A DNA stretch of 64,000 nt from Clostridia bacterium (GCA_017437145.1 JAFSBT010000005.1:10017-74016), one strand, 5' to 3'; shown: positions 10,321 through 61,789, counted from the first letter of the stretch. Numbers and translations are program-made. The notes: generated from the letters alone by a model not told the origin.

Positions 10321-10416
10321 GGAGGTGAGATGTGAGAGGTGTGAGGTGTGAGGTGGGATTTTAGGGATATGCTTCGTAGACTTTACCTAATTCTCGCACT
10401 TCTCACATCTCACTTC
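10321..10416. repeat. long imperfect inverted repeat with GTGAGG-type simple-sequence arms around a CTACGAAG-type core (family B)
   Basis: gaggtgagatgtgagaggtgtgaggtgtgagg ... tagggatatgcttcgtagac ... cgcacttctcacatctcacttc. Related copies at 31122 and 61696. Confidence 0.6.
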
Positions 10417-10490
10417 TGATACAAATTACAATTTACATGTTGAAAAAAACATATTAACCATATATAATAATCAACAAGAGGTGGATAGAA

Positions 10491-10943
10491 ATGAAAGAAC
10501 AAAAGGGTATTACACTAGTTGCTTTAATTATCACAATTATAGTAATGCTTATATTAGCTGCAGTTACCATACATTTTGGAACAAATTTGTTAGACAAATC
10601 AAAAAAGGAAGATTTGAAAACAACAATGTTATTAATTCAAAGTAAAACTAAAATAATAAAAGAGAAAAAGGATTTCGGAGATATAGAAGAACTAACGGGA
10701 ATTAGTTTAGCGAATAATACAGAATATACTATTTCTGAAAACTTTCAAAACAAATTAGATACAATTGAAAATGCTGATTTATATATATTAAATTCTGAAA
10801 ATTTAACAAATATGGGAATTACAGAGAATACAAGTAATGAGGAATTTTATATAGTAGATTATAATAATAGTGAGATATATTATTCTTTAGGATATAAAGA
10901 AGGAAATAGTACATTATATAGTTTATCTGAATTAGGAGAATAA
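10491..10943 (+). CDS. prepilin-like (class III signal peptide) N-terminal domain protein, possible competence pseudopilin/type IV pilin-like
   Basis: MKEQKG|[19 protein letters not shown] resembles the KGFTLIE prepilin leader, but lacks Glu at +5. Confidence 0.4.
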
Positions 10944-10944
10944 A

Positions 10945-11577
10945 ATGAAAGAAAAAGAATTAGCAAGATTAGAAAATTTAAAGAATTACGAAAATAAATT
11001 ATATATGGAAGGCTTAAATTATATCGCAGGAATAGATGAGGCGGGACGTGGCCCTTTGGCAGGCCCTGTTGTTGTTGCAAGCGTAATTTTACCCAAAGAT
11101 TCACTAATTGAAGGAATCAATGATTCTAAAAAGATTTCTGAATCAAAAAGGGAAAAAATATATGAGAACATAATTGAAGAAGCTATAAGTTATGGAGTTG
11201 GAATAGTTTGGCAAGATGAAATTGACGAAATAAACATATTAAATGCAACTAAAAAAGCTTTAACAGATGCGATAAATCAAATGAAGGTGAAACCAGATAG
11301 AATTTTAGTAGATGCATTAGATAAAATAGATACAAATGGAATACCATATACTTCAGTTATTAAAGGTGATGCAAAAATGTACAGTATTGGAGCTGCATCA
11401 ATAATTGCTAAGGTAACTAGGGACAGAATAATGAGAGAATATGATGAGGTGTATCCAGAATATGGGTTTGCAGGACATAAAGGATATGGTACAGCAAAAC
11501 ATATAGAAGCAATTAAAAATTTAGGAATATGTCCATTACATAGAAAAAGTTTTGTTAAAAATTTTGAAAGGGGATAA
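10945..11577 (+). CDS. rnhB: ribonuclease HII
   Basis: [19 protein letters not shown] motif and overall RNase HII pattern. Confidence 0.9.
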
Positions 11578-11580
11578 AAT

Positions 11581-59117: not shown

Positions 59118-59120
59118 GTG

Positions 59121-59153
59121 AAAAGCGGAAAGAGTTCTTCTTTCCGCTTTTTG
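59121..59153. terminator. bidirectional terminator shared with leuS
   Basis: aaaagcggaaagagttcttctttccgcttttt. Confidence 0.55.
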
Positions 59154-59156
59154 CTA

Positions 59157-61565
59157 TTATTTCACAACAATATTATAAATTTTATTCTTTACATATATTT
59201 CTTTTACAATATTTTTTCCTTCTAATAAATTTTCAACAGCTGAATATACTTTTTCTTTTACACTTGATTCTTCCTCATCTAGTGCAATTTTCACAGTTGC
59301 TTTAACTTTACCATTTATTTGAACAGGAATTTCTTTTTCTGAATCAATTGTTTTAGATTCATCATATGTTGGCCAAGCTGTTTCACATAGAGGTTTAAAT
59401 CCTGACATTTCATTTAATTCTTCAGTAATATGAGGAGCAATCGGATTCAATAATGTTAGTAATAAATGATATTCATCTTTTGTAATAGATTTTTTATCAT
59501 CCATACTATTAGCTAAAATCATTAAGCTTGAAACTGCTGTGTTATAAGCCATTGTTGTTAAATCGTTTTGTACTTTTTTAATTGTTTTATGAATAATTGA
59601 TTCTAGTTCTTTTGAGTAACCTTCACCAGCACCTATTTTATCTTTTAAACGAATTACTTTATCAATAAAACGTCTACATCCTCTTAAAGAATCTGTGCTC
59701 CATGGAGCATCTTGAGTGTAATCTCCCATAAACATTTCATAAAGTCTTAATGTGTCTGCTCCATATTCATTTACAATGTCATCTGGATTTATAACATTTC
59801 CTTTAGATTTACTCATTTTTTCATTGTTATTTCCTAAAACCATACCATGGCTAACTCTAGTCCATATCATTTCTTTATTTGGTACTAAACCAATATTGTA
59901 TAAGAATTGAACCCAAAATCTAGCATATAATAAATGTCTTGCAGTATGCTCCATTCCACCATTATACCAATCTACTTTTTTCCAGTATTTCATTGCATCC
60001 ATAGAAGCAAATTCTTTATCATTATGAGGATCCATAAATCTTAAGAAATACCAGCTAGAACCAGCCCAGTTAGGCATAGTATCTGTTTCTCTTTTGGCAG
60101 CACCACCACAACATGGGCAAGTTGTATTTACCCAGTCAGTAATGTTAGCAAGAGGACTTTCGCCGTCTTCAGTAGGTTCGTATTCAGCAACATCAGGTAA
60201 TAATAAAGGTAAATCTTCTTCCTTCATTGGTTGCCATCCACATTTTTCACAATAAATCATAGGAATTGGTTCTCCCCAGAATCTTTGACGAGAAAATACC
60301 CAATCTCTCATTTTATAATTATTTACTTTTCTTGCAATTCCTTCATTAACAAGTTTTTCAGTAATTGCTTCTTTAGCTTCTTCAACAGTAAGACCTGTAA
60401 ACTCTTCAGAATTTATAAGTTTGCAATCTTTATTTAAATAATCTTGTTTTTCAAATGCTTGTTTATCAGTATCTCTTCCATCAATAACTTGAATCATTTC
60501 TAATTTATGTTCTTCAGCATATTCAAAGTCTCTTTGGTCATGTGAAGGAACAGCCATAACAGCACCAGTACCATAATCACCTAATACAAAATCACCAAGG
60601 AAAATAGGAACTTCTTTTCCATTAACAGGATTAATTGCCATAATTCCTTCAACTCTACAACCTGTTTTACCTTTGTTTAATTCTGTTCTATCCATACTAG
60701 ATTTTTTAGCTGTTTCTTGGATATATTTATTAACTTCTTCTTTGTTTGTTACTCTAGGCATTAATTCTTTAATTAATTTACCATCTGGAGCAATAACAAA
60801 AAATGTAATACCATAAATTGTTTCAATACAAGTAGTGAAAACAGAGAATTTTCCACCACCAACTATTTCAACATCTAATTCAACACCAGTAGATTTACCA
60901 ATCCAGTTAATTTGTCCTAATTTTACTCTGTCTGCAAAGTTAGTATCATCAAGACCTTTTAATAAATCTTCTGAATAATCACTCATTCTAAGCATCCATT
61001 GAGATTTTTCTTTTTGAACAACTGTGTCCCCACATCTTTCACATACTCCACCTGCAGCATCCTCGTTAGATAAAACTGATTTACAAGTTGGGCACCAGTT
61101 AACTGGAACAGTATCTTTATAAGCCATTCCATGTTTGTAAAATTGTAGGAATTGCCATTGTGTCCATTTGTAGTATTCAGGGTCTGTTGTAGAAAATTCA
61201 CGAGACCAATCAAAAGAGAAACCTAAATCTTTCATTTGTCCTTTAAAGTTTCTAATACTTTCTTGTACAGCAGCTTTTGGGTGAATATGATTTTTTATTG
61301 CATATTGTTCAGCAGGAGCACCAAAAGCATCCCAACCCATTGGATATAGTATGTTATATCCTTGCATTCTTTTCATTCTAGCAAGCGCATCTTGTGCAGT
61401 ATAACTTCTTACATGTCCAACATGTAGACCAGCTGCTGAAGGATAAGGAAACTCGACTAATATATAATATGATTCCTTTTCATTTCCAGTTTCTGCCTTA
61501 AAAGATTGCTTTTCATCCCAATAATTTTGCCACTTTTTTTCGATTTGTTTGTGATTATATTCCAT
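59157..61565 (-). CDS. leuS: leucine--tRNA ligase
   Basis: HVGHVRSY (HIGH), KMSKSKGN, editing domain. Start at MEYNHKQIEKKW. Confidence 0.95.
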   Translation of the reverse strand: MEYNHKQIEKKWQNYWDEKQSFKAETGNEKESYYILVEFPYPSAAGLHVGHVRSYTAQDALARMKRMQGYNILYPMGWDAFGAPAEQYAIKNHIHPKAAVQESIRNFKGQMKDLGFSFDWSREFSTTDPEYYKWTQWQFLQFYKHGMAYKDTVPVNWCPTCKSVLSNEDAAGGVCERCGDTVVQKEKSQWMLRMSDYSEDLLKGLDDTNFADRVKLGQINWIGKSTGVELDVEIVGGGKFSVFTTCIETIYGITFFVIAPDGKLIKELMPRVTNKEEVNKYIQETAKKSSMDRTELNKGKTGCRVEGIMAINPVNGKEVPIFLGDFVLGDYGTGAVMAVPSHDQRDFEYAEEHKLEMIQVIDGRDTDKQAFEKQDYLNKDCKLINSEEFTGLTVEEAKEAITEKLVNEGIARKVNNYKMRDWVFSRQRFWGEPIPMIYCEKCGWQPMKEEDLPLLLPDVAEYEPTEDGESPLANITDWVNTTCPCCGGAAKRETDTMPNWAGSSWYFLRFMDPHNDKEFASMDAMKYWKKVDWYNGGMEHTARHLLYARFWVQFLYNIGLVPNKEMIWTRVSHGMVLGNNNEKMSKSKGNVINPDDIVNEYGADTLRLYEMFMGDYTQDAPWSTDSLRGCRRFIDKVIRLKDKIGAGEGYSKELESIIHKTIKKVQNDLTTMAYNTAVSSLMILANSMDDKKSITKDEYHLLLTLLNPIAPHITEELNEMSGFKPLCETAWPTYDESKTIDSEKEIPVQINGKVKATVKIALDEEESSVKEKVYSAVENLLEGKNIVKEIYVKNKIYNIVVK

Positions 61566-61695
61566 AAAAAAACCTCTCTTTTTAATATTTCCACACATTA
61601 TATAATATTTTTTTTATAAAATAAAGTAGAAACTGTTAATTTTTATAATTATTTGATATAATTACGGAAAATAGGAAAATATTAAATTGCAATTT

Positions 61696-61789
61696 GAGGT
61701 GTGATGTGTGAAGTGGGAAGTGCGAATTTTAGGTAAGGCCTACGAAGCATAGCCCTAAAATCACACCTCACACCTCTCACTTCACACCT
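61696..61789. repeat. family-B GTGAGG-armed inverted repeat with GGCCTACGAAGCATAGCC core, in the leuS upstream region
   Basis: gaggtgtgatgtgtgaagtgggaagtgcgaattttaggtaaggcctacgaagcatagccctaaaatcacacctcacacctctcacttcacacc. Confidence 0.6.

Follow-up and report, generated by a model that had tools for sequence, protein, structure and literature searches.

Heptad-armed palindromic repeats resembling a REP-poor REPIN/BIME-like system in a clade of ruminant-gut Clostridia

The 64,000-nt stretch of a Clostridia bacterium genome analysed here (GCA_017437145.1, JAFSBT010000005.1:10017-74016; the window) carries dispersed inverted repeats of about 100 bp that an initial annotation, made from the sequence, had sorted into two related families, A and B. 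The structural and comparative data make it somewhat probable that these elements are non-coding, non-autonomous palindromic repeats of 100-125 bp, and that they represent, within one clade, a form of REPIN/BIME-like mosaic system that lacks or is poor in REPs (REP, repetitive extragenic palindrome; REPIN, REP doublet forming a hairpin; BIME, bacterial interspersed mosaic element). They look like selfish intergenic repeats of the REP type or of the MITE type (MITE, miniature inverted-repeat transposable element) rather than conserved regulatory RNAs. The units are discrete, dispersed, found in both orientations and fast-changing, through gain and loss of 7-nt units and through swaps of the interior: within the same terminal repeats, family A arms, family B arms and GTAG-type REP/REPINs interchange.

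A complete unit (B1, B2, A2 and a metagenome copy, L101) has five parts. The outermost are 13-nt terminal inverted repeats, AAATTGYAATTTG. Inside these lie two arms, each of four to five tandem heptads and each complementary to the other, and between the arms is a core, in which an inner inverted repeat (ATTTTAGG in family B, GGTAATATA in family A) encloses a loop carrying the 8-mer CTNCGAAG. This 8-mer equals CTTCGNAG, which contains the REP tag GTAG. The copies in the window are the following.

B1, 10309-10434, + strand: complete family B unit between htrA (- strand) and a pilin-like gene (+ strand); terminal repeats 10309-10321 and 10422-10434, 5' arm 10322-10356, core 10357-10393, 3' arm 10394-10421.
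A1, 13074-13169, + strand: family A unit, a degenerate weak hairpin, filling the spacer between a low-molecular-weight phosphatase gene and pcrA; 5' arm 13074-13101, core 13102-13140 with CTACGAAG at 13118, 3' arm 13141-13169.
A4, 15453-15964, + strand: composite unit; family A 5' arm 15453-15489, 3' arm 15926-15964.
A2, 23182-23301, - strand: complete family A unit with core CTCCGAAG on the - strand; terminal repeats 23182-23194 and 23289-23301, arms 23195-23222 and 23261-23288, core 23223-23260.
C2, 26038-26130, + strand: hairpin of a third heptad family, C; (TAGTGAA)-type 5' arm, degenerate 3' arm.
A3, 29291-29385, + strand: family A unit in the ispG-ispH spacer; 5' arm 29291-29318, core 29319-29356 (TACGAAG), 3' arm 29357-29385.
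B3, 31120-31207, + strand: family B arms (31120-31151 and 31177-31207) around a different centre (31152-31176).
B2, 61684-61805, - strand: complete family B unit between leuS (- strand) and a short-chain dehydrogenase/reductase gene (+ strand); terminal repeat 61684-61696, arms 61696-61725 and 61762-61789, core 61726-61761, degenerate terminal repeat 61790-61805.

Every inverted-repeat site listed in the initial annotation was recovered at its position, and the intergenic location and the two orientations described there hold for all copies. The cores are more varied than it described. The family B core is present at 10321 and 61696: B1 carries CTTCGTAG at 10372, and B2 carries CTACGAAG at 61740 on the + strand, its hairpin being most stable on the - strand. 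The copy at 31122 (B3) has family B arms without CTACGAAG, and its centre is unrelated to those of the other family B copies. The core assigned to family A likewise needs amending at two sites, 23193 reading CTCCGAAG and 29291 reading TACGAAG. A common origin of the two families, previously argued from the centre, is supported by the sequences on a stronger basis, as both the CTNCGAAG centre and the 13-nt terminal inverted repeat AAATTGYAATTTG are common to A and B. The terminal repeat has 8 matches in the window against 2.3 expected, a number never reached in shuffles. B1 has it at its two ends, and it also terminates A2, B2, L101 and the element at the B2 site of SIG349, a metagenome-assembled genome (MAG) of a sister species that is about 91-93% identical to the window.

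The boundaries of the units are sharp. Alignment of B1 with B2 is confined to 10309-10435 and 61683-61804, and A1, A2 and A3 align with one another over 94-120 nt. L101 and the SIG349 copy of B1, which differ in genomic context, are 93.7% identical along a stretch of exactly 127 nt that begins and ends with the terminal repeats. Beyond the terminal repeats, copies from different loci are no longer similar. Target-site duplications, suggested as a check in the initial annotation, were sought at B1, B2, A2 and L101; outside their terminal repeats, none of these copies is flanked by a direct repeat of 2-10 nt. The earlier description of the elements as MITE-like finds support in several features: they are discrete, dispersed, lineage-restricted, found in both orientations and subject to turnover between sister species.

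The most informative result is the turnover at orthologous sites. Relatives at graded distances were fetched through their PcrA, LeuS and IspG homologues and include, besides SIG349, L119 (about 84% nucleotide identity), L116 and L117 (LeuS 93-94% identical) and L118 (LeuS 90% identical). At the B2 site, SIG349 has a single palindromic REP enclosed by 15-nt terminal repeats, and in the window these terminal repeats enclose family B arms and the CTTCGTAG core. L117 has a REPIN at this site, with CTTCGAAG beside a REP and a right terminus, CAAATTACAATT, that represents the retained right terminal repeat; L116 also has a REPIN and L118 has nothing. At the A2 site, a REPIN forms the centre in SIG349, where the outer arm and its terminal repeat are retained, and L119 has a degenerate REPIN-like GC-rich pair followed by the right family A arm and terminal repeat. 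The A1 site of SIG349 holds a B-armed element with a different centre. The A4 site of SIG349 is without the left arm and two of the REPs, and the A5 site in L061 has a REP remnant at its centre. B3 is absent from SIG349 and represented in L119 by a solo 5' arm. A3 sits in an ispG-ispH spacer that is 116 nt long in the window and in SIG349, where the orthologue has a diverged core; this spacer is 10 nt in L110 and 84 nt of unrelated sequence in L119. The B1 unit is retained in SIG349 with one heptad fewer in the 5' arm (-7 nt) and one more in the 3' arm (+7 nt).

REPs or REPINs are thus enclosed by these terminal repeats or arms at four sites, A2, A4, A5 and B2, and the genome has a REP population of its own. 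REP/REPIN-like hairpins, GC-rich and headed by GTAG, number about 20 in the window; they have the form GTAGGGGCGAAC...GTTCGCCC and occur as singlets, direct doublets (64-66 nt spacing) and inverted REPIN-like doublets. Their positions include the following, and hairpins of the same kind are found in L116 and L117.

REP-like hairpins, first part of the window: 12485, 12549, 15601, 15665, 15887, 16501/16522, 33635 and 46425.
REP-like hairpins, remainder of the window: 47520/47572, 50935/50976, 51805/51825, 58021, 63397 and 63463.

The arms of A4 lie about 435 bp apart, and the insert between them comprises four REP-like hairpins (one GCAGGGG-headed near 15510, three GTAGGGG-headed at 15601, 15665 and 15887), a family C heptad array (15536-15600) and a double hairpin, here called the D module (about 15735-15850). 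The family C arrays at 15536-15600 and 63420-63462 each lie between two REPs. Together with 26038-26130 (C2), each is joined to a small hairpin, AAATTTGC...GCAAATTT, and lies directly against REP-like hairpins that are GC-rich; C2 has a AAGAATTTGCTGT-AAA-ACAGCAAATTCT hairpin as its centre and a REP-like hairpin, 26011-26039, directly before it.

The loop 8-mer provides a second connection. The pattern CT[ACT]CG[AGT]AG has 12 sites in 187 kb of clade DNA, distributed over hairpin cores (5), REP-adjacent positions (5) and coding sequence (2). It stands 2-3 nt beyond the end of the REP at 5 of 56 REP heads, against about 0.19 expected, which is a significant link between the elements and the REPs. 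An excess of REPs within family A elements over chance is not demonstrable from positions alone. At the B2 site, TTTAGGGCTATGCTTCGTAGGCC of the window lines up with TTTAGACATTGTAGGGGC of SIG349, and on this alignment the GTAG of the element core is plausibly the GTAG head of a REP. The initial annotation could not place the elements in any known family; it had missed this link to the genome's GTAG-type REP/REPINs, which makes them placeable near a known kind.

In a bolder but rather unlikely reading, the heptad hairpin would be the dedicated carrier or landing pad of a two-part selfish system. The element would be a foldback element with self-templating microsatellite arms, and its CTNCGAAG/GTAG loop would be the site at which RAYT-like (REP-associated tyrosine transposase-like) activity inserts and removes REPs or REPINs. 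On this reading, a locus's core-only and REPIN-filled copies would be one element in two states. If true, Bacillota would gain their first described REP/RAYT-type system, and it would be the first case in which the insertion site of a REP is itself a mobile structured element.

The arms had been described as built from 6-nt units (TTTGGA/TTTGGT and GTGAGG/GTGTGA); the period, overlooked at that time, is 7 nt. Lag 7 alone among lags 2-12 yields tracts of at least 0.8 self-identity, bar two windows at lag 9, and in a scan of the window all lag-7 tracts except AT-only ones are element arms. The stems are AT-rich heptad microsatellites 25-36 bp long, in three dialects: NNTTTGG in family A (AATTTGG, AGTTTGG, AGTTTAG and AATTTGG in the 5' arm of A1), GAGGTGW in family B (GAGGTGA, GATGTGA, GAGGTGT, GAGGTGT and GAGGTGG in the 5' arm of B1) and TAGTGAA in family C.

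Such arms raise the possibility that the elements are not mobile, and that heptad microsatellites expand in place around a decayed REP/REPIN or a small palindrome at recombination-prone spots, with the similarity between loci arising from convergent slippage and gene conversion. Consistent with this proposal, gain and loss of 7-nt units is ongoing, as seen in the B1 orthologue; heptamer arrays arise repeatedly in bacteria, inverted pairs in Xanthomonas included (PMC4692102); and the GTGAGGT unit also forms an unrelated array on the Escherichia coli plasmid pO157. However, unrelated loci share 78-94% identity over the non-repetitive core and terminal repeats, with sharp boundaries, which rules out convergent slippage as the source of the similarity, and gene conversion needs a homologous unit to be already present at each site. 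Expansion in place is regarded as rather unlikely.

A different role for the heptads, very unlikely in our assessment, would be that of binding sites for a protein that reads 7 bp, forming a dispersed operator or nucleoid-organising set. The analogy is with the omega repressor/centromere protein of inc18 plasmids, which binds direct and inverted arrays of WATCACW heptads. The 7-bp period, the four to five units per arm and the inverted layout would all suit such a protein. So would the 3'-arm units of family B, the only ones to resemble the motif, which read NNTCACA and include one exact AATCACA (B2), and the position of B1 and A2 just upstream of predicted promoters. Against this, three unit sequences would demand three proteins; the number of units, and even the unit family, varies between sister species at the same gene; position relative to promoters is inconsistent; and no candidate binding protein was identified, no search having been made for one.

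The hairpins themselves are among the strongest in the window. In a scan with 120-nt sliding RNAfold windows on both strands (mean -15, standard deviation 6 kcal/mol), five element sites fall within the top nine of all hairpin windows in the 64 kb: B1 (-60 kcal/mol), B2 (-55), B3 (-46), A3 (-45) and A2 (-43). Relative to dinucleotide shuffles, the RNA z-scores for the two strands are -11.3/-8.6 for B1, -5.8/-10.3 for B2, -6.4/-3.7 for B3, -7.3/-9.2 for A3 and -3.6/-6.6 for A2. A correction to the initial annotation concerns the copy at 13072 (A1), which is weak, at only -2.3/-3.2. The corresponding energies are -62.1 kcal/mol for B1 (z -11.3), -58.5 for B2 (z -10.3) and -44.3 for A2 (z -6.6, - strand). 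When the elements are folded as DNA, z-scores span -4.6 to -9.4, making the hairpins significant as DNA too.

Folds of this stability could indicate functional structured RNAs, either cis-acting hairpins in 5' untranslated or intercistronic regions (RNase III sites, mRNA stabilisers or translational controls) or small RNAs. An RNA duplex of 30-36 bp is a substrate for RNase III. A1 and A3 fill spacers between genes on the same strand and end about 17 nt ahead of the start codon; if co-transcribed, each would form a duplex of this length that would act as an RNase III substrate or an exonuclease block. The B1 orthologue holds -62 kcal/mol through its unit changes. In addition, every family B copy gains 15-22 kcal/mol in stability when folded as the strand that reads CTTCGTAG, since its mismatches are G.U pairs on that strand. 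This last trait is a single property of the whole family, in which a GAAGTGN arm stands opposite a GAGGTGT arm. As all B copies share these two arm dialects, the asymmetry is inherited from a founder rather than independent evidence; it is also inconsistent in family A, and it was dropped as an argument for RNA.

The remaining observations speak against a structured RNA. Covariation, examined on four close family B copies and hence with low power, was not seen: 1 of 32 pairs is compensatory, and the covariation term is +0.62. Substitutions between orthologues do not compensate one another: at A3 the arms differ by 5 substitutions, not one of them compensatory, and the fold of the orthologue weakens from -44.6 to -29 kcal/mol; the favoured strand of A3 is antisense to both neighbouring genes. 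B1 and A2 lie between the best predicted divergent promoters, those of mecA and radC in the case of A2, and B3 lies 3' of the sortase gene terminator between convergent genes. The elements have no consistent orientation towards neighbouring genes or predicted promoters. Sister species swap the interior for a REPIN or delete an arm and keep the genes intact. Rfam has 0 matches over the whole window at gathering thresholds, and the elements themselves match sub-threshold microRNA-precursor models only (22-37 bits against thresholds of about 59-135 bits). The structured-RNA alternative raised in the initial annotation thus finds no support here. A conserved RNA function is ranked low because of the missing covariation, the non-compensatory changes in A3, the position of B1 and A2 between divergent promoters and the absence of an Rfam family, and is considered quite unlikely.

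Several other DNA-level roles were set aside. For a promoter role, consensus hits are no commoner than in shuffles, and neither B1 nor A2 falls within the best predicted promoters. For intrinsic termination, no element is called by a terminator scan, and no T run follows the elements. The elements show no testable defining feature of Chi-like sites, attC sites, rolling-circle origins and nick sites or single-strand origins, and the resemblance of CTACGA to the nick motif of pMV158 likewise offers none.

If the elements are selfish palindromic repeats, as the preferred reading holds, the units would be copied or moved as single-stranded DNA hairpins. The enzyme would probably be of the HUH/Y1 type and RAYT-like, the same kind as acts on GTAG REPs, and transfer of a single-stranded hairpin by such an enzyme would explain the missing target-site duplications. 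The arms would lengthen and shorten through replication slippage, and their rough complementarity would come from descent and template switching rather than from selection. The tandem-repeat structure of the arms lets the hairpin persist through shifts in register. An effect on the host, if any, would be a by-product.

Several points weigh against this reading. No RAYT gene was found either in the window or across the fetched clade DNA, about 250 kb in all; transposases are likewise absent from the window, in gene tables and Pfam matches, and from the gene tables of the fetched loci. The elements do not have the GC-rich palindrome of 20-40 nt that stands next to GTAG in REPs. The B1 intergenic region is 98% identical between the window and SIG349, compared with 80-95% for the flanking genes, which leaves room for a host function at that spacer. 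The elements are absent from the orthologous spacers of distant relatives, where the flanks are too diverged to give exact boundaries; as there is no clean pair of filled and empty sites, mobility is deduced rather than demonstrated. Finally, with only two species that have complete units, the direction of change between REPIN and heptad hairpin rests on parsimony at two sites.

The elements are confined to a small clade of uncultured Clostridia from the ruminant gut, comprising the species of the window and a few relatives close to it. A pattern scan for family A across 185,579 species genomes (one per species) gave 95 matches, of which two are real, both in the MAG SIG349; the others are nearly all isolated matches due to chance. 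With the pattern for the family B core, the metagenome collection yielded one true copy and the viral collection no match. L119 has a solo A arm and a solo B arm. L116 and L117 have REPs and no complete A or B unit, and L117 also has family C arrays. Heptad arrays were found neither in L104 and L108-L111 (PcrA 74-78% identical) nor in L118, and GTAGGGG motifs there number 0-2, with 0-1 among the relatives whose PcrA is 74-78% identical.

BLAST searches with B1 returned nothing from phages, and from plasmids only the (GTGAGGT)n microsatellite of pO157, which was rejected as simple sequence that is convergent and not homologous. This array (AB011549.2, about 54347-54420; L120 1468-1541) consists of about 10 perfect GTGAGGT units near a nikB-like relaxase gene. 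Its unit is that of the family B arms, and the resemblance is almost certainly convergent. Another look-alike, TTTTGYAATTTTAGATTTTGGTAATATATC, occurs on four contigs of a termite-gut 'Planctomycetaceae' bin (L005 about 1985, L039 about 2300, L057 about 694 and L082 about 236), in the form ..CACAGAGAACACAGAG..ATTTTGYAATTTTAGATTTTGGTAATATATC. It resembles the terminal repeat followed by the 5' arm of family A and was set aside for want of a complementary arm; it may be an unrelated family or a distant echo.

The window is a segment of 27% GC chromosome with housekeeping genes, among them htrA, the pilin-like gene, rnhB, pcrA, mecA, radC, mreBCD, ispG, ispH, the sortase gene, minC, a murA-like gene and leuS. 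Contigs identical to it are present in ruminant gastrointestinal metagenomes (ENA ERZ28653841 scaffold_40, ERZ28653878 scaffold_34 and 2 Logan runs), so that the sequence has been assembled independently several times. ERZ28653841 scaffold_40 (locus L107) starts at about window position 15975, inside the A4 composite repeat. This break in one independent assembly indicates that the element repeats fragment metagenome assemblies, which is of practical relevance.

Further features accompany the elements and their neighbours. The D module is a fourth repeat of about 110 nt, a double hairpin (AAGCTAAAATATTAATTTTTGAAAATG..CATTTGTCAAAAATTAATTATTTTAGCTT then TTTTGCTGAAAA..CAGCAAATCGA) that tends to adjoin REPs.

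D module, 15735-15850: copy in the window, within the A4 insert.
D module, 58081-58190: copy in the window.
D module, 58663-58790: copy in the window, reverse complement.
D module, 63530-63630: copy in the window.
D module, L119 4860-4940: copy in the relative.

Between a trmB-like methyltransferase gene and leuS lies a non-coding stretch of 1.18 kb (57981-59156) that is 49 nt in SIG349. Here, inverted D modules flank what looks like a candidate type I toxin-antitoxin locus. The candidate toxin is a hydrophobic open reading frame of 39 aa, MIESALISIIYILFYSLIGLTIILLTLIIAICMILSKQK, on the - strand at about 58418-58537, with a strong ribosome-binding site. Opposite it, on the + strand at about 58298-58420, are a convergent promoter-like TTTACA-17-TATAAT and a terminator hairpin. 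Upstream of leuS, 61565-61700 has no T-box leader (Rfam, 0 hits). As leuS homologues are 802 aa long, the true start is likely near 61565 rather than 61598, and about 118 nt separate it from B2. The coding region of pcrA (14921-15019) has a sub-threshold Rfam match to n00280, 'C. difficile sRNA included into helicase gene' (54.3 bits, gathering score 65.2, E 8.6e-07).

REPs, REPINs and MITEs have a formative influence on intergenic DNA, on the stability of transcripts and on the plasticity of genomes. The way in which REPs spread and the places where they land are still poorly understood, and they have been studied almost wholly in Proteobacteria. The present clade provides a natural series at single loci, comprising an empty site, a REPIN, a single REP and a heptad hairpin with only the GTAG-bearing 8-mer, and such a series could reveal the birth, remodelling and loss of these elements. 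The elements also tie the unexplained excess of heptamers in bacteria to palindromic mobile DNA.

Among known systems, the elements behave most like REPINs/BIMEs and MITEs, yet they fall outside what defines each. REPs, REPINs and BIMEs are built of GTAG-tagged repetitive extragenic palindromes mobilised by RAYT/TnpA-REP (PMC3733652, PMC3116915, PMC2817692). Like these, the elements are short intergenic palindromes of high copy number without target-site duplications; they share long hairpins with REPINs and a mosaic association with other motifs with BIMEs. GTAG is present in the element loop, within CTTCGTAG (B1, B2, A1 and L101), the 8-mer recurs beside the REPs of this genome, and the same sites and terminal repeats are occupied by REPs in sister species. 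Unlike REPs and REPINs, the elements have AT-rich heptad stems of 25-36 bp and a 13-nt terminal inverted repeat, and no RAYT was seen with them. They also occur in low-GC Clostridia, whereas a 2013 survey of GTAG-REP hosts lists Proteobacteria, Cyanobacteria, Chloroflexi and the PVC (Planctomycetes-Verrucomicrobia-Chlamydiae) group and does not list Firmicutes (PMC3733652).

Bacterial MITEs and modular repeats (Correia, RUP, ERIC and BOX) resemble the elements in being 100-130 bp long, non-coding and intergenic, with terminal inverted repeats, both orientations, stable hairpins if transcribed and variable internal tandem modules (PMC3184786). The elements differ in having no target-site duplications and, within the window and the fetched loci, no cognate insertion sequence with matching ends, in arms that are 7-nt microsatellites rather than unique sequence, and in an interior that is exchangeable with REPs. 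In the pneumococcal BOX element, the number of boxB units is variable. Eukaryotic foldback (FB) transposons have long inverted arms of short tandem repeats, variable in length, and coding partners. The likeness in arm structure is one of analogy only, since FB transposons belong to another domain of life, are of kilobase size and have those coding partners.

Intergenic heptameric arrays also resemble the arms. Xanthomonas genomes have 70-75 inverted pairs of GGGAATC arrays each, and Nostoc has GGGGAYT arrays (PMC4692102); in Beggiatoaceae, TAACTGA arrays lie directly upstream of start codons (PMC4679880). Such intergenic arrays are documented, with their function unexplained; according to work cited in PMC4692102, a preference of polymerase slippage for 7-nt units has been proposed. 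The arms described here share with them the 7-nt unit, the intergenic position, the typical number of about four units, the variation in unit number between close relatives and the convergent (inverted) pairs able to form stem-loops. The G4-type arrays of Xanthomonas and Nostoc differ in sequence: the units described here, GAGGTGT, NNTTTGG and TAGTGAA, have no GGG runs and are unable to form G-quadruplexes. In further contrast, the arrays of this clade always lie within a bounded unit with a conserved core and terminal repeats, and three unit dialects occur here in one genome.

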